Source: Moniliella sp. 'wahieum' (taxonomy: Eukaryota). Taken from it: a stretch of 64,000 nt of DNA. Shown here in pieces: positions 4,094 through 64,000 of this stretch (position 1 is its first letter; each line of letters opens with the position of its first letter). Made by a program: the position numbers and the translations under genes. The notes beneath the pieces are model-generated. The model did no database searches, had not been told where the DNA came from, and saw only the letters and a program-made list of their open reading frames with translations. The stretch is taken from contig RSEE01000015.1 of NCBI GenBank assembly GCA_003971905.1, forward strand, positions 496,001 through 560,000, given 5' to 3'.

Positions 4094-6190
4094 TCACTAG
4101 TCAAAACCCCTCGCGCCCATACCACCGCCACGCCGTCCTGGCCATAACCGTAACCAGCTTACATAGAGTAGCCAACCAGCAAAGCTAGTCATTAGCGCAT
4201 TCTAGGCGGTAGCATCACATCCGCCTTAGGGTTACGCGTTGGTAGGCCGCATGTCAGTGACTAGTGACTAGTGCTACTCGGCGCCAGTCAGCCTGGCATG
4301 GTTTTTTTCGCCTGTGCCGCACATTCTGTCTCAACGTCCCCAGTGAAAATGGAATTCTGTCCTCTACACACCACCCAACATTCTCTGTCCCACATAGGCC
4401 CTTCGGGCGGAGGCAGGCGGAGGTCTAAGGCATCCTAAGATCTAAGATCTAATCTCTAAGACCTAAGACCCGTCTCCTGCTTTGTCGAAACGTTATTGAA
4501 GCTTGAAGCTTGAAGCTTGAAGCTTGAAGGAAGAACGATTTGCGTTCGCCACCGGCTGACCACCGGGGACACTAGACCACCAAGCTGGTACTTCGGGAGA
4601 ACGTGAGAACACACTGGTCACTTGGGTCACCGGTCACCGTTCACTGTGCGCGGTCGCCAATCGCGCCGTGGCGAGCTGGTGACATGCATGTGTGACATGT
4701 GATGCCCTGAGGCTGGCTGTGAGTACTCAGACTAAGTGGGGAGGGTAGGCACCGAGGTGCGCGCTGAGGCGCTGAGGCGACTGAGTAACGGAGTACTGAT
4801 GCCGTGCTGAGGCCACAAGGTGCCGATCGCGTCCGGAGTCCAGAGTAGTGGGATCTAAGGATTGGAGCTATTAGTAGCAAAGAAACTGTATGCACCCCCT
4901 GTGCGTTAATTTTTTGCATTTGCATTGCAAGTTCCTAGCTGCACATCATTGCATCATCGACATCATCGATCATCGATCATCGATCATCAATCACCAGTCA
5001 CACTAGTAACTATAATTACTAGTGGCTGTGGAGCTAGTGAAAAGGCACCGAGTTACCTACCCTCCTACACCGATGGAGGGTCAAATTTATATCAGACTCG
5101 CTCCTGTCCATGCGCCTCTCCGTTGACGACGTTGACGCGTTGACGTCCAACCCCCCAACGTCTCAACGTCTCAACGTCTCAACGTCTCAACACACCTCTC
5201 TCAAGATCTGAGAGCCTTAAATGTTAAACGTCAACGCGGGAACGTTGAAATGGCACGTTCAACGTGTTCAACGCCGAAACACCACAGTGCATTATTCAGT
5301 TCACCGTTCACGCGCCGCGCTAGCGTCATTGATCGAATCGAAGACCTATAGGTCGACTAGCTTGGCTTAGGCAGGACAATCCCTTGCGATGAATGATTAT
5401 CGATTAATGATTACCAAATTGGATTTACATCAATCCCATGCACCCATAAGTTCAGACATACAATTCCCGCAGCGATACGCGAATGTGTCAAAGCTGCAAG
5501 AGGGGCAAAAGCTGTGGCAAGGAAAGGGGAGGGCATCGATTGTAGTCACTCGCGCCGGCATGTCACCGTGATGGTCAGCGAGCGCTCAGCGCGTCAGCAC
5601 GTCAGTAGAGCCCTGTGGAGCTTGGAGCCACACCCTGCCACACCAGGCCACGCCTTTATTAGCTTTACTCGTGCATGGTATGCTGTGGCTGAACACACAC
5701 AGCCATTGCATGTGGATAGATTGAATCGCCCCCGCACTGCCTCAAAACGCGCAGCGAGTAAGCCAGGAGTGCATCAGCGCCATCAGCGCGTTGGGACCCT
5801 CGACGGGCTGAGGAGCTGGGGAGCTGGAGCGTACTGGAGCCAGGAAGCACATGACTTGAAGCTACTAATGGAAGCATCTGGGACAGGAGAACAAGGAAGC
5901 GCTTTTCATCGACCTTCCTGATATGCCAAGTGAGTGATTGGGTGAATGAGATGGCGATGATCGATGATCGACATTATCGCTCAGGCGCTCAGGCTGAGCA
6001 GCGCGCTGGCTGATGCATGATGCATGATGATTGCCATGTGATGGATGTGATCGACACAGTGCCCCCCTGCCGGATCGTGGAGCGCGCAAAGCAAGCACCC
6101 TGGCATGTCACTGTTCCTGCTCCGGAACCCCGAGGCAGGGAATCACCTGCTGGATGTTGGAGTTGGGCAATTCTGAGATCTGAGATCTGA
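4094..6190. repeat. Dense cluster of 7-bp-period TNA-[palindromic 4-mer] arrays
   Basis: TGA CTAG (4258-4273), TAA GATC x2 (4436-4452), TGA AGCT x4 (4497-4527), TCA CCGG (4627-4636), TGA CATG (4693-4702), TCA TCGA x3 (4963-4986), TGA TGCA x2 (6011-6027), TGA GATC x2 (6174-6190). Also an 8-bp CAACGTCT repeat at about 5156-5191. Confidence 0.9.
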
Positions 6191-7072
6191 GATTGGAGAT
6201 GTGGGATTCCAGGTGGGATTGGTGCTTAGTAGCAAGGGTATCGCGTGCCACCGACTGTCTCGCGGGAAAGTCGAAGGAAATTAGCCCCAAAAGTCGGAGA
6301 AAAAGTCAACGCAAAACCAAGAGATTAATCTCTCGATATCGAGCATCAAGATCCACCAGTCGTACGTCCCGCGCCCCCAGGCCACCTTTGTCTCTGTCTC
6401 TCTACCGCCTCAACCACCAACGGCAACCGACGGGGATCTGTCGCCCTCAGTCTCTCTGAGAAATGGTACGAAAACCCATCAACAGTGATCGACACAGGAA
6501 AAGAAATAATGCCTCGATCGGATGGGAAATCGAATCCATCCAATGGTGCCTTCGTCAATTGTCCTGTGGGACGCGTATACACATCCCAGGTGTACCCCAC
6601 ACGGCCAAGCCGGGATTCGCAGGTTCAGCAGTGGTAGGGTCTACATTGCATGTTACCGGTTACCTGCCATTCAACCTCTCCCTTTCTCTGGAATGTCAGA
6701 TACCATACCACAGTCATTATCATGTTCCGTCTACTACTAGCCAGTTACGAGTCCATCAAGACTGTCGAGGTATAGAAGCAGAGGAGTGTTGAAAACGGGA
6801 GTACTCGAGCCAAATCGATGATCGTCTGATCGACCTCACCAACCTCATCAACCTATCAACCTCCCATATCAGCCTCACACCGATGTTGGCTCGCCTCGTC
6901 GATCATGAGTACCACGCAGATGGATTGGTTTATATCGACTGCATATTCAAGAAACAAAAAACCGCTGGCAGGAAGAGGATGCCGTGCGTGCCGAAGATGG
7001 TCTGACAGCGGTAGGGCACGGAAATAGGAAGAGAGAGCAAAGGGAGAAAAAAGAACGGGAAGGGGGTACGCG

Positions 7073-10000
7073 TTAAGCCGCAATCTCGAACAGCAAGTCG
7101 GATTGCGAGACCGAGTCATTGGGCTCGACAAGGATCCGCTTCACCTTGCCCGAAACGGGAGAGGAGACGACAGTTTCCATCTTCATCGCGCTCAGCACGG
7201 CCAGAGGGTCGCCGGCCTTGACCACGCGACCCACCTGCGTGCGCACTTCTACCACCACCGCCGCCAGGGGAGACCCCACCTGGCCTGGCTCTCCCGCCTT
7301 GGCCCCCTCGCGGTGCACCGACTCCACCGCTGCATTCTTGTCTTCGACAATGATGGACCGCGGCTCAGCGTTCAGCTCAAAGAACACCTCGCGTGTGCCG
7401 CGCTCCGAATTGACCGCACCCACCGCCAACAACTTGATAATAAGCAGTTTGCCACGGTCAATGTAGGCGTGAATCTCTTCGCCGACGGGAGCCTTGCTGA
7501 GGAAGTAACGGGTGGGGAGATGAGAAAGGTCGCCGTATTTGGCCAAAAATTCTTGCAAGTCTTCAAACACTTTGGGATACATGGCGTAGCTGATTGCATC
7601 GGCAGTGGTGATCGTCTTGCCATACTTCTTGGTCAGGGTCTTCTTGATTTGCCGCAAGTCGACGGGCGCCATTGATGCCCCGGGCCGTCCATCGATCCTG
7701 GGCTTGCCACGCAGGAGCTTGGTCCGCAGCGGCTCAGGGAAGCCACCGGGAGGCGTACCAAGATAACCTTGGAAGTATTCAACGACCGAGTTGGGAAAGT
7801 CGAGCTTGTCAGCACGCTCCTCCACCTCGGCCGCGGTCAACTTGTTGGCAACAAGGAACTGAGCAAAGTCACCGACAACTTTGGACGAGGGTGTGACCTT
7901 GACAATGTCGCCGCAAAGCTTATTGGCCACAATGTAGGCCTTCTTAACTTCGCTCCACTGGCTTCCGAGGCCGAGGGACATGGACTGGAACATGAGGTTG
8001 GTGTACTGTCCACCGGGCATCTCATGATCAAACACGGACGAATCTGACGCTTTGACTTCCTGCGCAAAGCACTGGTACAACTGGCGTACCGAAGTCCAGT
8101 ACAGGTTGAGAGCCATGATGTCCTCATGGCGAATACCGGGACCGAGGCCCGTCTGTTCAAGCGCAGCCACCAGTGCGCCCATCGACGGCTGCGACGTGAG
8201 CCCCGACATGGAGTCGATCGCCACGTCCACCACATCCGCTCCGGCCTCGGCGGCAGCTAGCATGGAGCTGAGCGCAATGCCTGCCGTGTCGTGCGAATGA
8301 ACATGGATGGGGGTCCGGATACTTTTTCCGGATCGAACCGACCAAGAGAGCGGCTGCAGGTTTCATCAGGCCCGCCATGTCCTTGATACCGAGAATGTGG
8401 ATTCCAGTCTTGACCAGTTCATCAACCAGGTTCATGTAGTACTCCAATGTGTACTTGGGGTGCGCCTTGGGGTTCGCTACATCGCCAGTGTAGCACACGG
8501 TACCCTCTGCCACGCCGCCCGCCTTCTTGGCTGCGTCAATTCCCAGGCGCAGGCTGCCCAGGTCGTTAAGTGAGTCAAAGACTCGGAAAATGTCCAGACC
8601 ATTCTCGACGGCTTTCTTGCTAAACTCGTAGATCAAGTTGTCAGGATAGGACGTGTACCCTACCGCATTGGCCCCACGGACAAGGGCTTGGAAGGGGATA
8701 TTGGAACGAGCTTGCGCAACTTGCGCAAGCGCTCCCACGGGTCTTCGTACAGGAACCGCATCGCCACATCAAAAGTAGCCCCGCCCCAGCACTCGAGGGA
8801 AAACGCATTCTTGAGCGCATACGACGTGGTCTTGGCAATGTTGGTCATCTCGATCGTACGCAGACGAGTAGCAAGAAGCGACTGGTGAGCGTCACGCCAC
8901 GTCGTGTCCATAATAAGGGTTCCCTTGTACGCCCGCACGGCCTTGGCAAACGCTTCGGGTCCTTCGTGAAGAAGAATGGAACGCCAACCCTCCTGGCACG
9001 GGACAGCCGTGTCAATGGCCTTGGTTGGGTCTGCCGGATCGTTCAATCGAGGAATCTCAATGTCCGTCTTGAGTCCAGGTTCGCCAATCTGGCCTTGAAT
9101 GTGAGAACCATTGACGGCCATGTCGCCAAGATAGGCCAAAAGCTTTTGCGCGCGGTTCTGGCTCGAGACCAAGTTAAACAGCTCGGTGTGTCGTCAATCA
9201 TTGTCGTCCACGTGTTAGCCGAGGCAAAGGCTTCATGGGTGATGAGACGGACGAGGAAAGGGACGTTGGTCTTGACGCCGCGGATGCGGAACTCGACGAG
9301 TGCACGCAGCATTTTACGCCGCGTCACCTCGTACGTCGCACCACGGCACGTAACCTTGACCAACAGCGAATCGTAGTGGGGCGTGATTTGCGCACCGGCA
9401 AAACCGCTGCTGGCATCCAGCCGCACACCATTCCCGCCGGCCGAACGGTAAACTTCAATCTTCCCCGTGTCAGGCTGGAAATTCTGAGTTGGATCTTCCG
9501 TAGTGATGCGGCACTGGATGGCAGAGCCACGCTTCTGGATCGTCTGTTGGGTCAAGCCCAGATCGTCCAGCGTCGCGCCCGCCGCAATTTGGATCTGAGC
9601 ACCGACAATGTCAATACCTGTGATTTCCTCAGTGATTGTGTGTTCGACTTGAAGGCGGGGGTTGATCTCGATAAAGTAGTGACGGTTTTGTTGGTCAACC
9701 AAAAACTCTGCTGTGCCCGCGTTGCGGTAGCCGGCCATTTTGGCAAGCTTGACCGCGTCGTTCAATAGAGCTTGACGGACCGAATCGTGCAAGTTGGAAG
9801 CGGGAGCCACTTCGACGACCTTTTGGTGCCGACGTTGAACTGAGCAGTCACGCTCAAACAAATGCACCACATTTCCCTCGCCATCAGCCAAAAGCTGCAC
9901 CTCAATGTGCCGCGGGTGGTCGAGGAAACGTTCGATAAACACAGTTGCGTCTCCAAACGCCGTCTTGGCTTCCGACTTGGCCATGGAGAAGGCTTGCTCA

Positions 10001-10733
10001 AACTCCTCGGGGCTGCGTACGACGCGCATGCCGCGACCACCACCACCCATCAGCCTTGATAATCACAGGAAAACCCACATCCTTGATAAACTCCTTAGCC
10101 TCCTCGTAGCTCTCGATGGGACCAGGGGTGCCTGGCACAATCGACACACAGCCCTACGAGCCAGGTCGCGAGCCTTGACCTTGTCGCCAAGCGCATCGAT
10201 TGTCTCCGGGCGAGGACCAATAAAAGCAACCTGCCGCCTCGACCTTCCGAGCAAATTCGGCGTTTTCCGAGAGAAAGCCATACCCGGGGCTGGTAGAAAG
10301 AGAAGCAAGGTCAGCCAAACGATCATTGCCCACACGTACACAGAAAGAAAAGAAAGGAGACGCACTGGATCATGTCCACACCATGATCGAGGGCGATGCG
10401 GATAATGTCATCAATGGCGAGGTAAGCGCCTACGGGGGACATGCCCGCGCCAACCTGATACGCCTCGTCTGCCTTCCAGCGATGAGCAGAGAGACGGTCC
10501 TCGTTGGAGTAGAGAGCAACTGTGCTCATGGCGAGCTCATGAGCAGTACGAAATACGCGGATCGCAATTTCACCGCGGTTGGCCACCATGAGCTTGCGTA
10601 GCGGTTCGCCGTCGTCGGCGCCGCCCATGTGCTGGCGGATCTTGGCAAGGGTGGGGATGGCATGACCAGTCAGCACACTAGGCGTGGCAGGGACGCTGAC
10701 GAAGGGGTCGACGACCGAGGGGTGTTCCGCCAT
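7073..10733 (-). CDS. PYC: Pyruvate carboxylase (BC, CT and biotin-carrier domains), frameshifted in this assembly
   Basis: [31 protein letters not shown] across intron 10290-10365, [61 protein letters not shown], biotinylation motif SAMKME. Confidence 0.97.
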
Positions 10734-12726
10734 GGTACCTCCAAACGTGGTGGCAGTAGGTGGGAGAGAAGGGAAGATGAGGCAAGGTGGTGGTGGGCAG
10801 AACTCAGGCCGAAGGAGCCGCACGATTGGAAAGCAGGTAGCAATCATTAATCAGGCAAGCAGCATCGCACCGGCCAGCCACCCCACCACGTACGTCCGTG
10901 CACACTGGCGCCATGCGCCCCCCATGATTTCAAGGGTCCATGGCTTGGTTTCCGCTTGCATGTCCGCCTGGGCGTCAGGCCGCACAAGCCTCACATCGCG
11001 CCAAGCCGCCGTGGCAAACGTGCGACCTGGACTTCATCATCCGTCCTGGGGCCCCCGTGCCCTTCTTGGCACGAACCCGCATGGGGGCTCTGTCTGCCTC
11101 CATACTGCTCTGATGCTGCGCTGGTATTCAAACTGGCGCTGGGCCAGGCCAATAAGTCCGCATTCTGAGTCTGTCATTTTGGTACAAGTATACAATTTGC
11201 ATTGGTTCCTGTTTACCGTTCGCGTCTTTTCCCCGTCGCGGACAACGACGATCGGAGTGGCAATGCTTAATGCTTTCAGTGAACGAGGGGAGCAGGATAG
11301 GTCGACAGTTCGAATAGAGGGGCAAATACTCAGAGCTCAGCTCATCGATCACCGGTCATCGATCACCTCATTATTGTGTGCATTCCATTGACAGAGCTTA
11401 AGGCTGGACAGGGGGAACGCTACGTCTAAACCGAACCATATGCACTTGGTTAATTTGCTCTCCAGAATAATATAGCTGCCAAGAGTTTATTGGATGAGGA
11501 GACTGTGGGCGGGGCTTGAGGCCGCGGGGGCTACTACTTGGCGCACCTTTACTGGGGCGTGTTGGCGATAGATCCGTAGTTACACCAGCAATCGTTCTCC
11601 GCGCCCAAGCCAACCACGCCAAGACGCGGAACGATGTTAAAAGGCCCTGGCTGCTGCAATACTGGTGTGACAAAACGATTATTTCCTCCGGAATAAGACA
11701 CAGTGCACACCAAACACTCTCCGTCCTTCGGAAGCTCGAAAGAGTCATACAGTGTCATGAATTTCATTGTAGGCACCATTGTATTGCAGTCGTGAACTGC
11801 GAGCGCTGAGAGAGCCGAGAGGTGAGTCGTTGGGTGCTCGTTGAGCATGGTGAACTAGGACGCGGGCGCGATTGAGACAGCGAGACCCGCGAAACACTGG
11901 TGATTTTCAGCGTGAGACTCTTCAACTGAGAGGTTCAACCTTCAGCTTCAAGCTTCAGGAGCCTTCAACGTCTTCAATAACGTTCGCGTCGACCTTCATG
12001 TTCTTCAAGCCTGCCAGAATCCCTCACACTCTTCAATAACCCACACACCTCGCTATTTCGGACTTGTCAGACATCTGGATCTGATCTGTGATCTGAGATC
12101 TGAGATCTGAGATCTGACTATAGAAGTACAGTGACTGGTCTGACTAGCTGACTCGTTTGTCCGTCGGACCAGAGGCTCACACAGGCCGAACTTACTAGCT
12201 TCTCGCGGACATGAATGTCTCAGCAGTTCTCACACCATATATACTCTGTTGTATCCGAGCAGGCAGGCGCTTTGGCGTGACATGTGACACTCGGTGCATG
12301 CCATGCCTCACAAGCTGGAATCTTCAACCAGATTTTTCCGCCACAGTGTGCGCACTATGCACCTTGAACCATCGTTGAGGCATTGCATGGTACGAATGGT
12401 ATTCCTGCCTTCCGCATATTCATGGCTGTTGCACGGTATGCATGTCTAGTAGCGTCTAACGACTACGTACAATACAACACACGAACCCACACGCTTTTGC
12501 GGCAAGGCCAAAGCCAAGAACAAGTTGATTTTTGAATCGGGGATAGGGCCCGAAAAAGGAAGCATCTCGGAAAAGAGCACTTCAACCGCATACCATGCAA
12601 AGGTATTCAACTTTGGTCGCCGTCCAAAACGACAAAGAGCCGAACGGTTGAGGCTCGACAGCGTCCCTTCTTGGTCGCCAAGCCAATGGGCCAATGGTGC
12701 CGAACCATTTCCTCCATTGACTCCAT

Positions 12727-17336: not shown

Positions 17337-19224
17337 CACGGGTGGGAGGGGAGGAAGGGAAGCGGGCATAGGAGAACTTTAACGCCTTTTTGCGTTAAAG
17401 CGTAACGCCCGGGCGATGTCACACACCCTCGCCTCAGCCTGCATTCCACGTGGCCCGAAGAAGCAGCCATGTCATCGATGAGGGGTGGTGGGTGATGCGG
17501 CGTGAGGCTGAGGCTGAGGCCCTGCGGCTGAAGGTGGACAAGGTTCAGACCCCCCCCAGCACCAGTGTGGCGTGCATCATGCATCGTGTCCACTGGCTGG
17601 GATGATTGGCCCGTGGCTTCGGCGCCGCCTCCCAAAAGTGGCCGGCGGGGCCAGGCAGCGCCACGTGGACTGCAGCGATGTCGCGTGCCATCCATCACGT
17701 AAGCATCGGTGTGATACGCTGCTGTGATGTCCCCCCGTGTCCCGCCTGCAAGGTCCTTCGCGTTTCCTTTCCGCCCGTCACACACCGCCATTAACGATAC
17801 TTGGCCAGGCGAGGTGGGGCGAAGGTAGGAGACGGGCGCACCGACGGTCGCGCCACCAGCGCCCGCCTTGTGGCATGTGACATGACGACTTCAAATAAAG
17901 CTGCTGGATGACTACGTTGACAATCTTGAGACAGGAGGGGAGGGCGGGGAGGAAAAGCGAGAGACGAAACCATGTGGACCGTGGGAATCAAGTCGCACAA
18001 GCCTAAACAGAGGTCGTATAGGAATTAAAGTGTCTAAAAGGGGAAGCAATACATATAGAAGTAAGCTCTGTCAATGAAATGGACGTGATATAGAAGTGGT
18101 ATAGGGGGGAAGGGAGAGAAGCAAAAAGAGGTTGCAGACGAAAGATAACTAGTACTGTTCCCAAAAGGGGTAATGCATAATGAGTCTAAACGAAGATATC
18201 GGTTCACTTGTAGACAGTGTAGGAACGAGCATCGTGAAGAAAAGGTGCCTGGGTCGGGGCGGCTGTTGAGATGTCAAGGTCAAATACCATGTTGGGACCC
18301 GCGGTCCCGTACATAGGCCAAGGCGCCTTAGGCCATAGGCCTTATCGATTATCTCGATTATCACTCTTTGCCCCTTAATTGACCTCCGAAGCCTGTTGGA
18401 TGTGTATACTCGGGCTTGTTTGAACCCCTGTCTCCTCTAGGTGTTGCATAAGGCTTAGACCTTGCTTTTCGCTGCAGTCGAAAGCAGTAAGGAGTACTAG
18501 ATTTTGAAGAAACAGATGAGTCGATGAGGCGAATGCAGCAAGGAGAGCCTATGGCTCATCGCGCTCATCATGGCTCGCAGACCCACATTTTGGCTCGTAA
18601 CATGTACATGTGTGAAATTATATGTAGTGTCAACGAGTCGCTTATAGAGTCTTCGAGTCACTAGTCATCGATCATCATCATCGAGTCATCATATCTTCGA
18701 TCATTAATTGGGAAAAAGATTTTGATGTATGTCTTCTTCCCTGTAGTATTCGACCACAAACCTAAAGCGGTAGCCTTACTATGTTTTGCTTCTCTCACAT
18801 TAACCTTACCTCTCAGATCATCGATCATCTCTCTCAGATTACAGGCTTCGATTGAGCTTGAATATTGAATAGTGTCTCGTACGTTATGCATTGGTGGCTA
18901 GTAGAGACTCCTGGGGCTACTTCTGGGCCCTGGAAGAACAGCGCCACGCGGAGGAGCAACATCCGGAGCGAGATAGAACGCTGCGCCTCTTGGCAATTTT
19001 TTCTGAGGAAGTAGAATATATAACTGATGGCGATTCCCACCCTCATCAGATCGATCGTCGTATAGCTCCACCGCCACTGCCATCACTCTCACGGCTGTGC
19101 CTCTTCCTTTTATTCTCGCCCTTTTTACTTTTTGGGGTCTCTATCTGTGTTGTACCGCCGTGAATAACCACCCCCCCCTCTCCCTGTCCCTCAATTGTCT
19201 CCCCCTTTCCTCCCTCTTACACAC

Positions 19225-20288
19225 ATGACCCTTTCTTGGCTCATCGCCCGCGACTCGACCGTGGACAACCCGGTCGCGTCAAACATCACGGTTGATACGC
19301 ACGGTGCTGACTTTGCTTGGGCCATTTTTGCGATCCAAACGCTCGTGTTCCTTGGTCTTTCGATTCACACCTTCTTCTTTGTCAATCGCGGCAATCGCAC
19401 CTTCGCCTATCTTGTTGCTGCGGCTTTGGCGTGCAATGCCCTCAATTGGTTTGCTCTTGCCTCCAATCTGGGTGCGGTGCCGATCACGGTCGAGTTTCAC
19501 GCCCATTATTGGGCAGGCTATGGCAAGGGATACAACAGGGAGCCCACCCGGTCCATTTGGTACGACAATTACTTCTAGTCACCCCCTTCCCTTGCCTTCT
19601 TCTTGAATCGTCTTGCGATATGCTGACAGACTGTTCCATTTACAGGATTTCGCGGTACGTCGACTGGTTCGTCTCCACGCCATTCATCCTCATTGCAATT
19701 CTCCTCGTATCCCCTGTACCGCTCTCGATCATCTTCATAACCGTGTTTTGGTCCATCTTTGCAATCCTCTGTGGCCTGGCCGGTGCCCTCACCTACTCTC
19801 AATACAAGTGGGGCTGGTTTGTCTTTGGAGTGTGTGCAATGACGTGGGTGCTATGGGTCCTTTGTGGGCCTGCCTTGCTGGCAGCCAAGAAAGCAGGCAA
19901 AGATGTGTTTGGGCATACATCCCGATTGTTGGTGGCTTTGGCTGCTGGGCCATTCTCTACATTATCGCTTGGTCTGTCGCCGATGCCAGCAATACCATTT
20001 CACCCGACAGTGAGTTTGTCTACTATGGCGTACTGGATCTCCTTTCGAAGAGCGTCTGCCTCATCTACCACGTCTATTCCGTCTCCGGTGTCGAGTATGA
20101 GCGCTTTGGTCTCTTTTCCAGTAAGGCTTCCATTTTTGCCTCCCCAGAGGCAGCTTCGGAGGGTAGGGCTACCTCCGAAAACGGTCAACGATGGTTACGG
20201 CCAAACGGAGGAGAATCCGGCTACAACCCAAACCGTTGAGACGACGGTTGTGACTAAGAACGTGACGAAACCGGCAGAGGAGGCGTAA
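19225..20288 (+). CDS. Microbial rhodopsin family (opsin-related, Hsp30/Yro2-like) 7TM protein retaining the helix G lysine
   Basis: NPVASNITVDTHGADFAWAIFAI, ALASNLGAVPITVEF, TRSIW|ISRYVDWFVSTP (intron 19560-19645), YKWGWFVFG, then after a frameshift near 19940 LYIIAWSVADASNTISPDSEFVYYGVLDLLSK. C-terminus at 20239 or 20288. Confidence 0.9.
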
Positions 20289-22501
20289 AGATGTGCCACG
20301 TAATTTGTGGATCGCATCGATCTCTATACCCCCTTCTTTCTCTGTATATCCTCTGTTGTTCCCACGCTGTTTACGCTTTGCACGCTGAATCTCCCTTTAC
20401 GACCACGGCGCAGTTGAAGCTCTCATTCATTCGTCCCACCTTCACAGGGCGTTTGTGTGCCTCCTTTTTCACTTCACCCTTTCGGATACGCTTGTGTGTG
20501 TGGGCAGAGCAGAGCCCACAAAACATGGCAGCATACGTTCAGTTTTACACCTCCGAGAAAGTGTTCAGTTATCACGGTCTCATCATGAGAAAAGGGATCG
20601 CCCTCTTCTCCCTGCTCCTCCTTCTCCCTTCTCCCTTCCCCCTCTCTCCTCTTTGTCTTCCTCACCAGTGACTGGTCCGAGAGGGATCTTGTTTCACCAC
20701 ACCTGACCTCATTTGTTCCTCGTTTCGTCATCATCGTTCATCTCTCGACATCCTCTCATCCTGCTGTTTTTAACGTGTTTAACGTCTCTATACGAGGCTC
20801 ACGATGGCCTCAATGACCCTTCTCCCTTCCTCTGGAAGTTTCCCTTGGTAAATACGACAACCATTATTACCATACACGCTTTTTTCGATGCAGTCCCCTT
20901 TTGTACAGTATCGGTCCGGTCGACATGCTCCTATCATAATCACACCCACACCAGTCTCGTCATATAACTGGGAGAGTTTCCGCACTGGGGAAGAATAAAC
21001 CAACGCTATCACCATAGCTCCGCTACGCTAGTCTTGTATGCGTACACTATACCGCAAGTCCCATCGATCATCACATGCACATCACATGTCACAGGCTTCA
21101 GTCCCTCAAGCGCTAGTAAGAACTAGGCCTTATACATGCGTTGTTGGCGTACAATAGCCCCGCATTTGCTGCCATCTGTTGTATGCGAGGCCGCATGTCA
21201 CATGGTAGACATGCAATAGCCTTTCGGCATAGCAATGGTCCAGGGTATTGCCACGGTGGAAAGTGCTATTAGTAGGATGGGCTAGCCGAGATAGAGAGCC
21301 CCCCCAAATATAAAGCTTTCGAGGGTAATCCGGTAGTATATCTCTGAACCGACAACCTGACCAGCCACAGACTCGCCTTTTTGGAAACGTGTCATGCATG
21401 TCATTGGCCCGTCGGAGCTTGGATGGAGAAGCTAAACGCGGGATGGCCGTCGGGGGGACAGGCCTTTGGCGCCACAAAAAAGGACGCGACCACGCTGAGA
21501 CACACCTATACTATGAAAGCAGACGGAGAATCAGCCTGGGGCCATGATCGGCCTGTGATCGCTCAGCGCGAGCACGAGCGGTGAACGTGTTGAACAGTTG
21601 AACGTTGAACTGCAAGTGCCACCCACAAAAGGCAACAAAACCCCACAGTCCATATTCTGTCCTGTGTCTGCTGAGGCTGCCGGGCGCGGCAGGGCAACTG
21701 TCGCGGCGACTCGTTTTTCAGCCGAGAAGTTGCCGACCCCACACAGTGCATTGCCCACTGTGGCCCTATCCTATTTCGCAGAGGTACAGGCACATATGTT
21801 TGTAGCGTCCAAACATCCGATCGCCCACGTCACATGTCACACTGGCACAGTGCACACGCCGTTATGTACTCTTGTACATTCCCTTGCCCATTGTTTCTCG
21901 TGCCTTGGTATAGGTAGCCGAGCTGGTATAGAACAACTCGTTATTTTACCAAAAGCTTAAAGCTTTGGACCCCTTGAAGCCTGGAGAGCTTGAAAAGCTG
22001 GAAGCTGGAAGCCGAAAGCCAGAAGCGACATTTTTTTGGCCGTTTTCTCCGGACAACATACGCCCACTCGAGTCCGGTCCGAACATGCCTGGGCATCCAT
22101 TGTGCTTGGCAGCATAGACAGGCTAATTGGGACCATCAGCTAGTGCACGCATTCGTCGACGCTTGAAGCTTGACCTCTCGATGTCTGATGCATGATCGAT
22201 TTATCGCCGCATTACAGGCACTATGTGCATCACCCATCAACTTTCAAAGCTCTCTGGGACGCGAGAGATCCATACCGACGCGTGACGGTGGCTATTCTGG
22301 CTAAGCGCTGATCCGCTGATCCTCTTTGATCCTGCATTGAAGAGGGAAGCCGTACGCCATATAAATGGTGCACCTTCCCACCCAAAGTCGACCCTGCACC
22401 GCCACCGCGTCCTCCCCATATTGGCGCCTCACTCCCCCTTCACTCTTCACTCCAATCCCCTTTCACTACAGCGGGGGCCAGTTCCTTCCATCACTGTTAC
22501 T

Positions 22502-24069: not shown

Positions 24070-26782
24070 CCAGTAGCCAAGAGTAACGATTCTCTCCCGT
24101 TCTGATTGTTGAACACACACCATCCATATTGTGCACGCGTTATATCCGTATTGAGGCCTTGCATGGGGGCCTATGACTGTTGTTGATATGTCATTATGCT
24201 TTTCTTATCGACATCCCCATGTGCATACCCTCAGAAATCTCATAGATCGGGTCTCGGAGGGGTACTACCGATGTACTTGTGACAGCGCACTATAGAAAAC
24301 TCATACGAGAAATGGGGAGTACAGACTGTGGCTGTGGGGGGTCACTCCGGAATACCGGAAGAGAGGGAGGGGGATCGAGAATCAATTGTCTTTTCTTGTC
24401 TGTGGGTAACCGGTGAATGACTGCAACCGAAATGGACGCCCATGATGGATCTCGCGAACCTCCGGTCACATGCACAAGACACAATGCAAAAGCACACGCC
24501 TAAAGGGAAGACTGTAGGCGAGAACAGGGAAGAAAGACAGCAGGAGAGAAGAAAACAGAGAAGAGAGAGGAAGAGAGAAAAGGGAGGAGTGTTGGCAATG
24601 GTGGGCAGGCTGAAGGCCACAGGCTTTTCTGATGCCCACTGATTCCGAGATCTGAACAGAAAGGGAGGGATCAATCAGGTTAGGACGCGTGCGTACATGG
24701 AAACGCGGTATATATTGGCACCACATTTATTGCATTCCTCCTCGACCCGTGGTTGGAGAGAAAGAGGGAAGTCGCACGTCGTATTATTACAGCTGTCCCT
24801 GGAGTATCTTTCAGGTGTGTAGAATAATTGTGAGAGGGGGGACTATCAGGCACGCTTTCTGTGACAGCTGCGAGCACGGGCGCTTATTAACACATACCGT
24901 CGGAGTCATGGGTTGCCACTACCAGGGGCTATATACCCCAGAACTAGTGTCTGTCTGGGTACTAGCTAGCTATCCTAACCATATGGCAGGCATCCACTGC
25001 GAGACATCCACCTCCTCCTTTCTACATACCAAAACGCAAGCGAGAAACGATACGCTCTCTGCTAGAAGCCTAAACATTGCACCCGTGCCCTCGGGACCCA
25101 GGGCGGCGATACGATACGCCGCCACGCGAACAAGCCACCGTCTCGATTGTGCCGGCAACCCTAATAGTACGGATCGAGGAGGACACGCAATGTGCACTTT
25201 CAAATGTGTCAAGCTCATCAGGGCGCTTGGGTAGGATTCCATGTCCCATACCAATGCCAGTACGATCCCAAGTCCCACGTTCAACTTGAAGCTTGAAGCT
25301 TGACGCGCTTGGCGCTTGGTTCGAGACTCTTACCTCGACCTGGTAGCAGGAAAGGTCCTTTCTTTCGCTTTCAGTCAGCGCAGCCACATGCACAACATGC
25401 ACGAGAAATTCAAGCCTCACCATCTCCTCTTCTTTATGTGGTTGGCGCAACGGCACGTGCACACTCGTTGCCTTTTATGCGCCTCCTCGCGCGCCTCACA
25501 CGCTCACGACCGAGCAGAGAACGATCACAATGCTGAGGCTGACGGTCAACACGTTCAGAGTGGCCAGTGCTGACCCACTGACAGCAACTGTGACATGTGA
25601 CATGTGATGTTCCAACCAATAGCCCCCAATAGCACGGACGCTGGGGGGATGGGGGGGGGATTCCCGTGTGCGCTCTCGCTCTGTTGCATGTGCCCTCGGG
25701 GTTTCTATTATACCAAAAGCTGTGCGGGGGGCTGGGTGGGGGGCGTATTTGGTAGCGGTTACCGAGGCGTGATTTACTCGCGATTACAAAGAGAGAGAGC
25801 ATAGCTGAAGTGATCGGCATGCGTGTAGTCCGATGATCGAGATAGGCCGCATATGAAGCTTGAAGAACAGACGGGAAGTGATCCGGTTTCCCATGATCGA
25901 TGATCTGTGCATGAGCGAGGGCGAGGGCGAAGCTTCTCTACGAGACAACGTCTCGTGGGTGAAGTGTTGGGGCGCAGCACAATAATCAATCGCATCTTGG
26001 ATCTTATCATCGATCATCATCTCATTCATCGTAAGGCTGCGCCGTGCTGCATGCGATGGTTCGCACTACGCTGTGCACTGCACGGACTGCTTCCCAGAGA
26101 TTTTCATTGGCCAGATCTCAGATCTCAGAAGACCAACAAATCATTGCAAACTTCATAAGCTTCAACGTCTCAACGGCTATCTCGCTCATCGATCACCATG
26201 CATCATGCATCATGCATCATGATAAATGGCTCAGCTGCTATCGACTATCGCCTACTATTGACTATCTTTCTCCCTGCCAGCCACACTTAGTGCCAAGAAC
26301 AAAGCCGGGCTGGTAGTACGAATGCACGGGCGTGCAGCGGCACTCCCCCCCCGCAACCCCTCCGCATTGTCCGCAACGCCCCCCAGCCACACCAGCAAGC
26401 ATATGGTATGGCGCTGCGGAGCAATGCAAATCCACGTGTGGGATAGAAACTTTAATTGGCCCTGAAATCCCTGGGATGGGCTTGTAGTGCTCCCCAGTGG
26501 CTGCTCCAACCACATGGCAACCGATCCGACCTGGGCTTGAAGCTTGAAGCTTGGAGCTTGGAGCGTCTCTCAGCTGAAGCAGGCTGAAGCTCTGAAGCTT
26601 GAAGCTCCCTTGCAGCTTGAAAGGTGAAACCTGTGGTCGATTCATGATAGATCTGAGGCTCTGAAGGTTATATTTAGCACCCACGTTTGTTCGTATCGCC
26701 GCCCCGACCCCCACAGTGTCCCCCACCATCTCTCTACCTTGGAACCTACTACCCTCCCTCTCCTCGATCTTCTTCCACCGCC

Positions 26783-32759: not shown

Positions 32760-33514
32760 ACAGAGGGAAACATGAGTTGCATTCATGAGTAACAACAGCC
32801 GGTATCATATGGGTGTTGGAGCCGGTCGTATGGGCAGGGGGGTACGGGCATCGGATGATGCACATTCTGCTGACGGCAAGGGCTGGCTGCCGGTACAGGG
32901 GATAGTAAAAGCGTTGAGTCGCAGACTGAACGTCTGGCACGCGAACCAAGCTGATCAAGTGCGGGGGGAAGCGTGTTGGGCGGTGAGCTTGTGCTTGTGC
33001 TTGTGTGCTTGTGCTGGTGGGGGGTGGCATGAAAGTGCGATGCATGGTGCATGATGCGTGGTGCATGATGATCTGCACGTGGGGCCCGGTGGGGCCGGTG
33101 GGGCGGCAGAGTGGGCAGTGCGCAGGCGAGACAGACCCCGTGCTGTGGCCAGGATGGCCCAGAGGCTGGAGACTGAGCCTGCGGCCGCAGAGCTGTGCTC
33201 CAGCATCAAGTACTGCCTCCGCCTGGAGAGGGAGCGGTGGCCGGTGGCCGGTGGGGCGGGAGGTACGATGGATGATGCAAGGATGCATGGGGCACAGGCC
33301 TTGCTTGTCCATGTCGATCTCGATGATCCGCAGGCCCGCATGTATAGGCGCCGATCCTGGCATCTATAGCTGTGGCTATGCAGACTGATGATCGATGGCC
33401 AGTAAGCCAGTGGTCAGAAGGGAGTGTTACTTGAATTCCGTCGCGCTGGCTGTCGACACCGCCCAGGTCTCCCCACCACCTCCTTGCTTTGGTGCTCGCA
33501 GCGTCCGACATCCT

Positions 33515-37378: not shown

Positions 37379-39126
37379 ATGACGGGTGGTGCGCGCAAGT
37401 CGTTCATCTCGGGGCACAGGTCGAGCATCATGCCATTGGATGATGATGAGAAGAAACCGGGAGGTGCACTCCCCAACCCTGCTGCGGGCCCACCGGGGGG
37501 AAACGAAGGTGCTGGCCCCCCTGGCGGCGGCCCCCCCGGTGGTGGACCTCCGGGGGGCAAGCCTCCTCTCGAGTTTGCAAGCCACAGTATCTTTGATCCC
37601 AAGTTGCGGCCCTTGTTCCAGCCCATCTTCAAGGGCTACGTGCCCTTTATCGCCCTCTTGTCAGTTGTTGTCATTTGGGGCATCGTACCTATCTTTGTGA
37701 GTATAGATTTCATGGAAACGCTTCACTGGAAAATGACTAACGTTGATCTCGTCCTATGTGCAGTGGGGTTCGCTTTACCGCCTTACCTCTCGTAACTTGA
37801 CAGCTTTCATCATCAACGGTGACCCTAACGGACAGATTGGCGATGTGATCCAAACGGCGTTGCTGGCAAGCGACCACCCGGGCAACAAGAAACGCCTTCA
37901 CTGGGTTGCCAAAACCCGTTCGGATTTCCCTACGACAGACAGCATCCACAAGGCATTGAAACGGACCAGTCGGCTTGGTGGCGGTTGAAGTGATGAACAA
38001 CGCTACCCAGGCGCTTGTCACGGCCCAACAATCAGGGGACACGAAGTGGGACCCCAATGCGGTCATTCAGATTTGGTACACCTCGGCGCGCAACTACATG
38101 GCAATGACCAGTCAGATTGTGGGGCCCACCAAGGGGTCTTAATTGACACGATGGACCAGCTCAACATCAACATTACTTCAACCTGGATCCAGAACACGCT
38201 TCGTTCGAAACCAACAGTACCGAGATGACGACGGTACTTAACTTTGGCCTCCAAGCCCCTCAGACCATCGGCCACGCTGTCGACTTTACCGAGAACGACA
38301 TCAATCCATTTGACCAAACGTCACGGTTGCTACCACCACGTTTGTTGGGTTGATCTACATTTTGCTCTTAGCGTTCAACATTACCATGGCGCTCTTTGGT
38401 TCCCGGCAACCGATCCTTCCGTTTTTGCGTCTTCGCCACCTTTTGATCCTGCGCCTGGCAATCCCCACTCTCACCACCTGCTGGTTTCGTTTGTATTTAG
38501 CATGATCAACTTACCTTTCCACGCCAAGTTTTCCAATCTAGGTCCGAGCGCAGCCGCTGGCTTCTTTGCCTTCTTTGCCATGCTGTTTACCGGTATGATG
38601 GTTCTAGGGCTTTGACTGAATTGGCACTGGAACTCCTTGGGCCGAAGTTTGTCGCATTTGGGCTGATGTTCCTCGTGATCATGAACGTTTCCGGGGCGCA
38701 GTACCCGATCCCGATGCTGAACAGCTCTTCTACCGCATCGTACGCACTACCCTTTTACAACCTACGTCAAGCCTTTCTCAAGATCCTGTACGACCAAGGC
38801 CCGAAGTGGGCTTGTTTGTCAACTGGGTCATCCTGTTTGCTTGGCTCGTCATTCTCCTTGCTGTCTTCCCCTTCTTTATCCGTCGGGACCAGCACAAGGC
38901 GATTGCCATGCGCAAGGCCGCGCGCGCGGGTGGCGGGCCAGGCGGCGGAGGGCCTCCCGGTCCTCCTGGTCCTCCTGGTCCTCCTGGTCCTCCTGGTCCT
39001 CCTGGTCCTCCTGGTCCTCCCAGTGCACCGGGTCCACCGGTCCACCGGGCGCCCCTTCTTCGTCGAGCGGAGGTGGACTTCCAGCTCACAAGCTGCGGAT
39101 CTGTCGACCGACAAAAGGAGGTGTAG
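37379..39126 (+). CDS. SNG1-family / DUF3533 multi-pass membrane protein
   Basis: SIFDPKL...VVIWGIVPIF|WGSLY (intron 37697-37763), NATQAL...WDPNAVIQIWYTSARN, FSMINLPFH, LLGPKFVAFGLMFLVIMNVSGAQYPIPML, YALPFYN. Frameshifted. Confidence 0.8.
38950..39021 (+). repeat. (GGTCCTCCT)n repeat encoding (Gly-Pro-Pro)8
   Basis: Near-perfect 9-bp tandem repeat in the C-terminal tail of the DUF3533 gene. Confidence 0.9.
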
Positions 39127-40362: not shown

Positions 40363-40423
40363 CGTTTTCCAACCTCGTTTTCCAACCTCGTTTTCCAACC
40401 TCGTTTTCCAACCTCGTTTTCCA
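40363..40423 (+). repeat. 13-bp minisatellite (CGTTTTCCAACCT) x4.7
   Basis: Perfect copies starting at 40363, 40376, 40389 and 40402; partial copy at 40415. Confidence 0.92.
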
Positions 40424-43101: not shown

Positions 43102-44409
43102 TAGACGCAACAAGGAGCGCAGCATATTTGTATGAAGGGGCAAATTGTGTCAACATGTCAATGGCCGATTCCTGTTACAGCGCACTAAATGAAATGAGAT
43201 CGGTGCAATCTCCCACAGCTGCTGGGGCCCCTTCTCGAGCTTGAGACACCCAAAGCCCCCTCCACGGCCTCATCGCGCCCCATCTTAATCTCATCCCCCT
43301 CTTCATCGCCGCTAGCAAAATGGCAAGCGTAGTAGCCAAGGGAAAGGGAAGGGGAAAGGGCAAGAGCCAATAGAGAGATACTTCGGCACTATGAGCGCAC
43401 GGTCCAGATTCCTGCAGATGACAGCTTCCATTCTAATTACAGAAGAAGGTACACAGTCATCTGTGCGGTCTTCATGGATCGCACAGAACAGATGTTTTGG
43501 ATGAGAAGATCGATGAAGAAGACAGCCATGACCACGAAGCCGTCACCCCTGTGCTACGGAGAAGTTTCTGCAGTATCAGCACAAAGACAATCGTAGGGTA
43601 GCCGTTATTTGAAGGGCGCGCCTAGCCCGCCGCCGTGGCCAAACGGATGCGGGAAAAGAGGGAAGAAGAGGCGGGTGGTGACTCGGGAGAAGCATGTTCT
43701 TAGCGCGCGACAAAAGACGACCGCGGGAAACGTTGTTGTCGAATAGTGAGAGACTAAAACGCAACAAGGGGACAACGCCTCTTCCCCCTGTGGTCCACGA
43801 ACAAAAAGGACAGGGAAAGAACTCCCAAGATGATCCAGAAGTCATTTGCGGTGCGCGCTTTGGTGTGGTTCAACAAGAAGCAGTTATAGCGATAGTCGAT
43901 ACAGGAGGAACTTGGCGACCGTCACCGGGTCACCGATTCCAGCAGCGCCGCGGCAAAGCGCGGCTTTAGGTGCACCCTGAGGCCTGATGCATGATTCGGA
44001 CATGTGCATGACAGCTTTTCCGATAAACCGATTATCTTATCTCACGAATCTATCCTGAAATTGAACCGCCCGAACGTTGGTCCCTCATGCACATGCAGCA
44101 TGCACCATGGACGATGTACTGCCACCTCTGGCTCTTCTGCTCTTTCCTGAGATCTCACGCCTGCTCGGTCCATCAATCTGTCCACCAACTGAGCGACTGA
44201 CATGTTCACATTCACAACACTGGGGTGCTCCCGAGGCGAGTCATGAAATGCAAGTACATACAAGACACGGACAGTGCATCCATCTCTGGTGGCAGGGCGA
44301 GCAAGGTGAAAGCAAAGCACATCATAGGGAGGTGGGGATGCATCGGCTGTACCTGTGCCTGTGCCTGTGCGTTCGAGACAAAAGGTATCACCTGACTGGC
44401 GCGACCAAT

Positions 44410-49100: not shown

Positions 49101-49982
49101 TTTGTGTTGCTGTTGCGGTGTCAGTTGCTGGGCCATGCGGAGTTGGTGAGTCGGGTCAACCGACAAGGGTTGCTGTGCCAGAGCTTGAAGTTGGCCTGGT
49201 TGGACCTGGCCTTGGGCTTGGATGTGACCAGGGGACTGTGCCTGAGCCTGAGCACGGGCCCGAGCCTGAGCCTGAGCCTGCGTCTGAGCTTGAGCTTGGG
49301 CCTGAGCTTGGGCCTGAGCTTGGGCCAGTGCCTGGGCTCGAGCTTGGGCTTGTTGGGCCTGTGCTTGGGCCTGGGCCTGAGCTTGAGCCTGGGCCTGAGC
49401 TTGAGCCTGAGCTTGAGCTTGCGCTTGCGCTTGCGCTGCTTGAGCAGCTTGCGCTTGCGCCTGAGCTTGAGCTTGAGCTAGGCGAAACTGCTGCTGCTGG
49501 AACTGTTGCTGCTGCTGCTGTTGCTGGATCTGAAGCTGCTGCTGCTGGAACTGGTGCTGTAACATCTGCGGGGTTACTTGGGAAGGAAGAGCTTGTTGTG
49601 CCTGTTGAGGTTGTGGCGTTTGTGCCTGTGGCACCTGCTGGGCCTGCTGGAGCATGAGCGCTGCAAAGGCCGGCACGCCGGCAGGGTACGAGTCGGTGGG
49701 CGGGAGGAAGGAAGAGGCGGAGATGCCGAGAGCAGCGGCCTCCTGCATGCTGATAACGACGTTGCCATCGGGAAGGCGGGGGGCGGAGGCTGCGCTGGCA
49801 GGAAGAGCGGCGGCAGTGACGACAAAGAGCCCCTGGGCCATGAGCAGCTGGAGCGGGCGGTGTTGGGCGCCGCTCTGGATGGACTGGCTGACAGCATGCA
49901 CAAGGTCGCGGCGGTGGTCGCCAATGGCAACGGCGGGGGTTGCATCGGGGGCAAGTGGAGTGGCGTAGCCCTGCGCCTGCAT
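46157..49982 (-). CDS. SNF5: SWI/SNF subunit Snf5 with Q/QA-rich N-terminus, Snf5 repeats and C-terminal GATA-like and C2H2-like zinc fingers
   Basis: [10 protein letters not shown]...[13 protein letters not shown]...[12 protein letters not shown] (Rpt1); QFEWDLA...[30 protein letters not shown] (Rpt2; intron about 47813-47866); [23 protein letters not shown]-x18-CSSC; CSDC...HLKNRSH. SFH1 paralogy is not fully excluded. Confidence 0.85.
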
Positions 49983-51015: not shown

Positions 51016-51888
51016 GGCGACAAACTCTACCCAACATCCAGCAGAGGTCGGGGGGTGGGGAGTAAGTACATGTGCATGGGTAAACGAAAGTGAACCTACC
51101 AAGCTTGCTTGACACGACGCCCACAAGAAGTAGATGATAGGAAGGGGTACCACCTTAGGCAACGCCGAGCCCCCCGCGCTCCCCCAGCATCGAGCACCAA
51201 TCGGCACGATGCATGGTGCATGATGCATGGTGCATGATGTATGACGCGTGACGAGAGTGGCGGAAACCATGAAGCGGAAATTGTCGTGTTTTCAAAGTTG
51301 CTTTTTCCCTGCCGTCGATCAGTCTCGCGTCTGCGCTACGCAGGTCTGAGATTCTGAGATCTCAGTCCGACTTGGCCTGGAAGCTGGCCGGGAGAAGAGC
51401 TAACCCGATTGTGGTCGGACGACCAGGGCCACCGCGTGCTGAAGCCAGCCCTAAGGCCTAAGGACCTAAAGGGCTGACGCGCTGACGGGTCTCTACGTGA
51501 CTGGCCTGAAATGCGCTGACAGCGCGACATTCCTATCCCACGATCAATGGAGGTAGGGCCTACATTTCCATTTTTACGTGGTCCCCGACCTACCTAAACC
51601 CAGTTTCCCGAGCGGTTCAATCGCCAATCCGTCTCGCTCACAGCGCGCAAAGGGAGAAGGGGAAGCTGATGGGTCCATTGTAGCACATGCCACGGAAGGG
51701 GACGTGTCTTTCCTTTTGTTGTAGGCGACCAATTGAGCGCGGCCAGTGACTAGTGACTAGTGGCGCCGACCATACATCCTTCGTACTAAGACTCAGTAGT
51801 ACTCATCAGGCTCTGGTGCGGCGGTGGTTCCTGCAACCCAGAATGCGCCCGTTCAGTATGACGGCCACCATTTGTTCATCTGGCGACC

Positions 51889-55853: not shown

Positions 55854-55949
55854 TCGGGCCACAGAGTACCGAGGTCAGCAGACCGAAGACCGAATCTCGC
55901 TTCGGGCCACAGAGTACCGAGGTCAGCAGACCGAAGACCGAATCTCGCT
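55854..55949 (+). repeat. Perfect 48-bp tandem duplication
   Basis: TCGGGCCACAGAGTACCGAGGTCAGCAGACCGAAGACCGAATCTCGCT at 55854 and 55902. Confidence 0.92.
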
Positions 55950-62518: not shown

Positions 62519-64000
62519 CGGGGCGAGAGGGGGCGGGGGAGGAGGTGGAGGTGGAGGTGGAGGTGGAGGAAGGGCAGAGCGCGGCCAACTCTCAGCTGCG
62601 CGGCGTTTGCCGTTTCCTGGCGATTCCTGCCACCCGGGCCTGCCCACACCGCCCGCCGCGCTCCGAACACCCGCCGGCCGCACGCCGCCAGTCCCGCCCC
62701 AGCCATTATTAATGGCAGCCAGCTCAGGTGTCGTGTGAAATCTTTCAGTGCCATCGGTCACGTGATACCTCGCTCACTTGGCCACTTGTAACCACAGCGT
62801 AACCAGAATGCGTCGTCATTAACGTCATTGCACATTGCCCACCCAAGTGCATAATGGGGGTCAGCAACCGGTCGGCAGTCGAGCGGAGGCGCTGCTCTCC
62901 CCTTCACACGAGTAGCTGCGCGCCCACAGGAGCTTATGGACACGAAGTAAGAGTACTGGCAAGCCCAGCCATTCTTGCCAACACAGCAGGGCAAAATGTA
63001 CCCCCCCCAACAGGCCTACTCTCCCAACTTGATAATGCAGGTACTGCATGACGGACTCTGGCGTAACGCGTAACGTTGGACCAAGGTCTCGATGAGCGTG
63101 GGAGCATCGATCACTCCAAGCGTCATGCATCAAGCGCTTGACCTACCATTGTTCCCCCAAACGTCGCGCACGTCATGACGCGGCATGCGGGGCACGTTCG
63201 CACATTTGCTACTTATAGAATTCGGGGAGAGGGTGGGGAGGGGGGGGGCAAGGTCCTATAGCGTGGGGTACCAGGGAGATTGGTCATGGCAATGGCCTGA
63301 AGACTATATATAGCTGCCTGCCGTATACTCTACCGTGACGGAGCGTGAGACGGTACGGACCGTACTATTTTTGGTGCGGCGGTCCCAGCCTAACATGAAC
63401 CGTGAGAGTTTGCGTGGGAGCAGGCTCAAAACAGCGCTCATACTCACAGCTCAGAGAGGTGCTCATCGATCATTCTGCTGCGTCTACTTTTCCCTCCGCG
63501 GGACACGGTAACGCTTGAGAAGCTTGAGTGAAGGTGAAGGCTTGAAGCTTGACGCTTAATGCTTGAAGGATCCCCTCGGGTCCGCCAGGAAGGACACTGG
63601 ACTGAGCAAGTGCGCACTTAGCGCCCCAGCAGCACGGGCAATGCGATTGGGTGGGCACAAGAGGCTGGGACGGCGGCTGTGGGGAGTCTTATTATGCACC
63701 CCTTGGGAAGCTTGAGCTTGAGCAGGCGGAAAGAAGTGTCGAAAGGGAAAATAGAGGCTGGGAGAGGTCAGCACTGAGAGAGCCGGCGCGGCGTTAAATT
63801 GCGCGGTCGACGGCGGGGACGAGAGAGCAGGAGGAAAGGCAGTGCCAGGCGGGCCTGATCGGTCCACCCGGCCTTGAGGCTCAGGCTCAGGGCGCAGCAG
63901 CGAGCCAACGCGGGCGAGGTCGAACGAAGAGGCTGAAATCGAGTTGCGCCTCACCTGACCGGGCGGGCTGGGGGCAGTGTGTGGCGTTGAGCTGTCGCGC

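Follow-up and report, generated by a model that had tools for sequence, protein, structure and literature searches.

The window analysed here, a stretch of 64,000 nucleotides from contig RSEE01000015.1 of Moniliella sp. 'wahieum', is eukaryotic in character, with short interrupted open reading frames (ORFs) and a GC content of 0.49-0.66 per 2-kb stretch. It carries genes for pyruvate carboxylase, ribosomal protein SA, a P-type ATPase, an opsin, an RNase T2, a mitochondrial carrier and SNF5 (Table 1). Scattered between them are chains of heptanucleotide units, in which a TNA triplet is repeated on both sides of a palindromic 4-nt core. The window contains 78 such chains holding 100 cores, at a density of 1.2 chains per kb; 61 have one core and 17 have several. 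The chains avoid coding sequence, since Pfam-supported ORFs, which occupy 20.4% of the window, are touched by only 2 of the 78 while 15.9 would be expected. Fifteen of the 16 possible palindromic cores are in use, according to our own count on the chain list.

The array at 11342, on which much of the following turns, is on the upstream side of the pyruvate carboxylase gene, beyond its 5' end, where the DNA has no Pfam support. Closer to the gene, a TCA TTAA TCA scar (10844-10853) falls exactly at the upstream end of the frame encoding the biotin-carboxylase N-terminal domain of pyruvate carboxylase; it gives TGA and TAA stops on the coding strand and therefore marks an intron or the 5' untranslated region. 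The opsin gene, of the fungal bacteriorhodopsin-like kind (19311-20285), adjoins heptamer-rich spacers. The window also holds repeats of other types. A perfect 48-nt tandem duplication at 55854-55949 consists of two identical copies (TCGGGCCACAGAGTACC...) and is unrelated to the heptamer grammar, while a perfect 13-nt tandem repeat (CGTTTTCCAACCT x 4.7) at 40363-40423 is outside the TNA-palindrome rule. Long tracts that look in-frame, with units of 9 nt (CCTCCTGGT, proline/glycine-rich) at 38932-39047 and of 6/18 nt (CTGAGC-type) at 49198-49559, are found in or beside ORFs, in the region of the DUF3533 gene and on the upstream side of the SNF5 gene, and are probably coding low-complexity repeats.

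Table 1. Positions within the window of the gene, arrays and scar products discussed in the text.
Feature	Position	Strand	Basis or remark
Pyruvate carboxylase gene	7076..10850	-	Pfam-supported ORF pieces
9-nt product: gtTCAac, P nucleotides GT, GTTCAAC	5257..5272	+	product count
Mixed-core array TCA TCGA TCA CCGG TCA TCGA TCA	11342..11365	.	sequence
X gg X reading of the same array, X = 12-nt TCATCGATCACC	11342..11367	.	irreducible by canonical reverse events
Mixed array ag TCA CTAG TCA TCGA TCA tc	18656..18676	.	flank rule and reduction
14-mer gc TCATCGATCACC = gcTCATCGATCAcc, same as the presumed precursor of the 11342 array	26184..26197	.	unrelated context
8-nt product: gcTGAag CT CTGAAG (site, 2 P nucleotides, site minus 1 base)	26583..26597	+	product count
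Period-14 (two-unit) array	33039-33070		array scan
Mixed array cc TGA GGCC TGA TGCA TGA tt	43976..43996	.	flank rule
Period-14 array (TGA TGCA TGG TGCA)n, a point-mutated unit copied with its neighbour	51204..51244	.	two-unit slippage
Second 9-nt product: cgTCAtt AA CGTCATT	62814..62829	+	product count

Palindromic cores are far more frequent than chance allows. When two T[C/G]A triplets with the same centre base are separated by four nucleotides, the core is palindromic in 84 of 127 cases; in 100 dinucleotide-preserving shuffles of the window the mean was 1.93 and the maximum 6. By triplet, the proportion is 47/63 for TGA, 37/64 for TCA, 9/13 for TTA and 7/14 for TAA. The 62 trinucleotides other than TGA and TCA together give 127 of 1979 (6.4%), matching the background rate of palindromic 4-mers in the window (0.062). 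The excess is particular to pairs of T-N-A triplets that share their N. Palindromic cores are also in excess between triplets with opposite centre bases (TCA-palindrome-TGA 4/17, TGA-palindrome-TCA 5/14), which might reflect a hairpin opening 4 nt away from the tip or inverted events next to each other.

The identity of each core is set by the bases next to it. Writing a site as ab TNA cd, we compared the leftmost core of each chain with rc(ab)+ab and the rightmost with cd+rc(cd), where rc stands for reverse complement. The left core agrees in 40 of the 78 chains and the right core in 44, and at least one side does so in 67; a control using the dinucleotide located 2 nt further out agrees in only 3 and 6 of 78. 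Templating from the left and from the right is therefore equally frequent, as a two-fold symmetric process predicts, and in these 67 chains the insert is made of P nucleotides, reverse complements of the flank bases at the junction. Reversing such canonical events collapses 66 of the 78 chains fully to one 7-nt site. Ten chains are irreducible and, on our reading of the list, each lies one flank substitution away from a canonical product, the 11342 array having first been collapsed to a 12-nt block. In a scan for any block X followed by k mirrored bases and X again, period 7 stood out, periods 8 and 14 were weakly enriched and no other period was; the form X(5)+2+X(5) was found 94 and 95 times against 37 expected, with TNA at a fixed place in 62 of the 94 and 58 of the 95 cases. 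Conversely, only 2 loci show a plain 7-nt copy of a non-palindromic TNA site (2 of 54 non-palindromic TNA-N4-TNA). Because plain duplications are nearly absent and the cores are templated by the flank, the units were not born by slippage. With orientations pooled, the 65 empty sites that could be reconstructed lean weakly and symmetrically towards CG TNA CG (C at -3, G at -2, C at +2, G at +3); among the flanks that did not serve as template, CG is the commonest (10/49).

The length of the duplicated unit can be read from the products themselves. All TNA-centred 7-mers of both strands (5176 sites) were searched for the site followed by n P nucleotides and by the same site minus its first m bases, with nine other centre patterns (5031-10325 sites each) as controls. 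A site followed by 2 P nucleotides and the site minus 2 bases, a net gain of 7 nt, gave 120 hits (controls 0-12); with only 1 base missing, a net gain of 8 nt, there were 22 hits at 16 loci (controls 0-2); and with the whole site repeated, a net gain of 9 nt, 13 hits at 12 loci (controls 0-1). The 6-nt class was not in excess in the window, with 14 hits against 3-14 in the controls, and unambiguous products with one P nucleotide are rare, with 1 locus in the 7-nt and 2 loci in the 8-nt category. Products keeping both overhangs are rare as well (1/44), and palindromic spacers of 6 or 8 nt are absent from the window (0/73 and 0/44). From this 9/8/7 series it follows that the duplicated unit is the 7-bp ab TNA cd, that two mirrored bases are added nearly constantly and that the other side loses 0-2 bases. 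A length of 7 bp, and not of 3 or 5, is directly visible in the 9-nt class. The same products correspond to a target-site duplication kept at an empty donor site, found whole at 12 loci and shortened at the 16 loci of the 8-nt class and in the 120 hits of the 7-nt class.

We propose that the heptamers are repair scars of a recurrent event at TNA sites, and we regard as its probable origin the insertion and excision of a cut-and-paste transposon that duplicates 7 bp. Such an element would insert into a 7-bp target centred on T-N-A and duplicate it. On excision both flanks would be sealed as hairpins exactly at the element boundary, and each hairpin would then be nicked 2 nt from its tip, leaving 3' overhangs of 4 nt that are self-complementary (cd d'c' on the left flank, b'a' ab on the right). 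Nucleases of the Artemis type open hairpins about 2 nt 3' of the tip and give 4-nt 3' overhangs. End joining would retain one overhang, ligate it to the recessed 5' end of the other flank and trim the other overhang. The observed products are ab TNA cd d'c' TNA cd or ab TNA b'a' ab TNA cd, with a net gain of 7 nt and a core copied from one flank; trimming of the other side by 1 or 0 nt would instead yield the insertions of 8 or 9 nt. Each scar would add new TNA sites, so that repeated events, together with slippage once two units exist, could build arrays. Several other schemes were worked through on paper and fail to give the observed product: a duplication of 3 bp as in Harbinger-like elements, one of 5 bp with hairpins opened symmetrically, and a hairpin offset by 1 nt as in hAT elements. 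Polymerase fold-back and template-switch models were also rejected, as they would seem to have no priming microhomology at the junction.

Arrays with differing cores are where the model makes its sharpest statement. A mixed array would arise when both flanks of one original site are used, the left block being built of b'a'ab and the right block of cdd'c'; it should accordingly hold no more than two core types, arranged in blocks, each matching its outer flank. The preliminary description had singled out the array at 11342 as carrying different palindromic cores in one in-phase array and had listed five more sites of the kind (18658, 22186, 40858, 40719 and 43978). The + strand reads as described, TCA TCGA TCA CCGG TCA TCGA TCA between 11342 and 11365, with gc on its 5' side and cc tcatt on its 3' side, and the letters of the other five sites match too. 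Strictly closed mixed arrays, having TNA on both sides of every core and differing palindromes, number only three in the window (11342, 18658 and 43978), whereas at 22186, 40858 and 40719 the second palindrome has no closing TNA. In the 18658 array the left core CTAG is templated by the upstream ag and the right core TCGA by the downstream tc, and the whole array reverses to the single site agTCAtc through two canonical events. In the 43978 array GGCC is templated by the upstream cc, and TGCA is one base off the downstream flank (tt, not tg). Mixed arrays make up 3 of the 17 multi-core chains; 1 in 4 would be expected if second events pick site and side randomly, and fewer if slippage adds identical units.

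It had also been suggested that differing neighbours should both be palindromic more often than expected, and adjacent cores were tabulated within the window. Among closed triples with differing cores both are palindromic in 4 (at 3 loci), one is in 11 and none in 5; hence, of the 15 with at least one palindrome, 4 have two, somewhat above chance. Unclosed neighbours give a different picture. The outer 4-mers of the chains are palindromic in 26 of 156 cases, against 9.8 expected by chance; 13 of the 26 merely repeat the adjacent core and the 13 that differ from it are close to the chance figure. The examples at 22186, 40858 and 40719 thus carry little weight.

The 11342 array itself is an exception, as a canonical event alone can neither make nor undo its A-B-A order; in the reduction test none of the 6 possible canonical reverse steps matches. 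It is best described as a 12-nt block, two mirrored nucleotides and the 12-nt block again, so that 11342..11367 equals TCATCGATCACC + gg + TCATCGATCACC, where gg is the reverse complement of the last 2 nt of the block. The grammar is that of the other scars, with a direct part of 12 nt instead of 5 nt, and we regard the array as a non-canonical product of this grammar. It could derive from a single excision at the second TCA, repaired with 5 nt of templated filler from the left flank; here the right end would anneal to the left duplication copy, copy 5 nt and join the left end with 2 P nucleotides. Alternatively, a canonical CCGG scar could have been followed by a two-unit misalignment and the loss of one unit. 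The sequence at hand fits both accounts alike. The 14-mer gcTCATCGATCAcc occurs twice in the window, in the 11342 array and at 26184, where it is one substitution away from a canonical product; the 26184 copy was rejected as a paralogue of the 11342 precursor, the surrounding contexts being unrelated. Likewise, a 16-nt match between 11385-11400, beside the array, and 18062-18077 was taken as chance: at least two motif matches occurred in 10 of 100 shuffles of the window, and by our estimate some tens of such pairs are expected anywhere in 64 kb.

The excision of a transposon is a step that we infer from the scars; no element, transposase or polymorphism was seen in the window. Pairs of terminal inverted repeats (TIRs) flanked by identical 7-mers within 12 kb of each other are absent from the window, the only matches being array artefacts, and no transposase domain was recognised by Pfam in 218 ORF translations (15+150+53). 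A candidate end motif, CTCACTG, is not enriched in the window (6 found, 12.1 expected). Nor does the window hold long paralogous copies showing an insertion, its direct-repeat families being the arrays themselves or coding repeats. Besides, a density of 1.2 chains per kb would need a very active element. Three further points weigh against the proposal, namely the rarity of products keeping both overhangs, a uniformity well above that of published hAT footprints, and the misfit between the 11342 array and the canonical event.

These observations leave room for the same chemistry without any mobile element, and we judge this unlikely. Staggered 7-nt breaks at TNA in open non-coding DNA would then be made by a hairpin-forming nuclease, endogenous or domesticated, or through some other TNA-directed break-and-repair process, and repair would write palindromic insertions of +7, +8 or +9. 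The window without element, transposase or TIR would be explained, and so would the extreme uniformity of the product (two P nucleotides almost always) and the high density of scars restricted to non-coding DNA; in addition, the 12+2+12 product at 11342 resembles a 14-nt stagger between two neighbouring TNA sites. However, fill-in of a staggered break simply leaves a plain duplication, and such duplications are rare here (2 loci); a 7-bp duplication combined with P nucleotides needs fill-in before the hairpins form, as insertion followed by excision provides. We know of no TNA-directed nuclease that forms hairpins, which also counts against an origin without an element. That the scars are written by a DDE enzyme of the hairpin-forming kind retained (domesticated) by the host, or by some other TNA-directed nuclease, still cutting open non-coding DNA, is in our view distinctly unlikely. 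Very unlikely, too, is an element whose target duplication is asymmetric and 5 bp long (TNAcd), with 2 P nucleotides on one flank only, a rule of 'five forward, two backward'. This describes the major 7-nt product equally well, as the enrichment of X(5)+2+X(5) illustrates, but the 8-nt and 9-nt classes, in which 6 or 7 bases are duplicated, are unpredicted and symmetric opening of the hairpins would be expected to give an insertion of 5 nt, not 7 nt. To our knowledge, moreover, transposases have two-fold symmetric targets, unlike a target with TNA at its edge.

On an origin as ordinary microsatellites, slippage would expand quasi-palindromic heptamers, whose palindromy selection or hairpin-driven template switching would maintain. 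The window does hold period-14 arrays and arrays in which up to 4 identical units follow one another, and the modest excess of differing palindromic neighbours in closed triples is in line with such an origin, whereas unclosed mixed neighbours are near chance. Single-event loci dominate, however, with cores that are set by the adjacent flank and use nearly the full repertoire; plain duplications are almost absent, and a 2-bp stem with a 3-nt loop would lack plausible stability. This origin is largely refuted by the flank rule and we hold it to be highly improbable. Slippage may nevertheless act as a secondary process on existing arrays, as period-14 (two-unit) arrays occur. Finally, the palindromes could be cis-regulatory, forming arrays of binding sites for a dimeric transcription factor in promoters. 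Their non-coding and often gene-proximal location, including that of the 11342 array upstream of the pyruvate carboxylase gene, and the presence of the 14-mer in two copies would suit such a role; yet no core is preferred, the cores are copied from whatever flank is present, and the only constant letters are the T and A of TNA. We give this possibility almost no credence.

Insertion and excision of a 7-bp-duplicating transposon being the origin that we favour, the mixed cores can be reconsidered. The preliminary description had argued that they speak against simple slippage, and the comparison of plain 7-nt duplications at 2 loci with 67 flank-templated chains bears this out. It had further left open whether palindromy is selected or mechanistically generated, and the second of these agrees with what we found: a core consists of a flank dinucleotide and its reverse complement and is born palindromic. 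The two compensatory substitutions that a change from one core to another was thought to need are not required, since the flanks to the left and right of a site yield palindromes that differ, and no selection is needed because the repair chemistry itself would make palindromes. Selection is also at odds with the use of 15 of 16 cores and with a choice of core dictated by the neighbouring bases; within the window, the same two facts argue against the proposed likeness to covariation in a stem. In contrast, the model predicts differing neighbour palindromes once both flanks of one site have been used. If it is correct, the short tandem repeats of non-coding DNA in this fungus would mostly be break-repair scars with a fixed grammar rather than products of polymerase slippage, and the scars would form a readable record of thousands of past cut-and-repair events, from which the target of the element (nnTNAnn) and its hairpin chemistry could be deduced. 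The scars would also be a source of promoter-proximal variation. Should a domesticated enzyme be responsible instead, the genome would carry its own generator of promoter variation, and microsatellites would have a new mode of birth.

A genome-wide scar pattern of this kind was not encountered in published descriptions, in a search confined to journals outside subscription and to articles without their supplementary files. Its components can be set beside several known systems. At excision sites of the hAT element Ac/Ds in yeasts, palindromes of P nucleotides arise through flank hairpins and end joining, and the footprints comprised 28 different types among 128 events, according to the consulted part of the source (PMC5873905). 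MULE, hAT, Transib and RAG are all described, in the portion consulted of a second source, as hairpinning the flank (PMC5499845). The heptamer scars resemble the footprints of these systems, including the V(D)J coding joints of RAG, in that a duplication is retained together with short flank-templated palindromes, and the explanation given there, namely hairpin formation, off-centre opening and end joining, follows the same logic as the one proposed here, as far as those excerpts go (PMC5873905, PMC5499845). They differ in the 7-bp TNA-centred duplication, in a palindrome arm that is almost always exactly 2 nt, and in their abundance, with about 1.2 scars per kb stacked in tandem arrays and no element seen in the window. 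The departure from Ac/Ds is specific. Its footprints, as presented in the consulted excerpt, centre on the complement of the adjacent base, whereas here the palindrome sits at the exact boundary, and the product is nearly uniform in place of 28 types (PMC5873905). The feature particular to hAT footprints in that excerpt is therefore not seen in our cores, which are even palindromes cd d'c' centred at the boundary next to a 7-bp duplication (PMC5873905).

Transposons with 7-bp duplications are described in Basidiomycota, namely hAT7 in Pucciniales and Kyakuja in Laccaria (PMC12730594, in the part consulted). They share with the scars the length of the duplication and the phylum; a TNA-centred target or footprints are not among the features described in the consulted part of that source (PMC12730594), and no homologue was found in the window. 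Elements of Cryptococcus were considered as a source type and set aside, as none of those compared is a 7-bp TNA element: T1 lacks a target motif, and the duplications are 3 bp for CNIRT6, TA for CNEST and 4-8 bp for KDZ elements (PMC9942834, PMC12810828). The repetition of a T-N-A triplet on both sides of the junction recalls PIF/Harbinger and other elements that duplicate a 3-bp TNA or TWA. Unlike these, the scars have the whole 7-bp site doubled at 12 loci, and a duplication of 3 bp offers no source for another copy of the flank dinucleotides; at the same 12 loci the duplication reaches 2 nt beyond TNA on both sides, so that it is not limited to the triplet. Heptanucleotide microsatellites, for their part, have in common with the chains the tandem 7-nt units and a secondary expansion that includes two-unit slippage. 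The founding direct tandem copy of a slippage-born microsatellite is, however, found at only the 2 loci with plain duplications (2/54 TNA-N4-TNA); the founding duplication of the scars comprises 5 nt direct and 2 nt inverted and occurs at TNA only. Altogether, the heptamer scars belong with a known kind of trace, the P-nucleotide scars of excision, and are unusual within it for their 7-bp TNA-centred target, their uniformity, their density and their seeding of tandem repeats.
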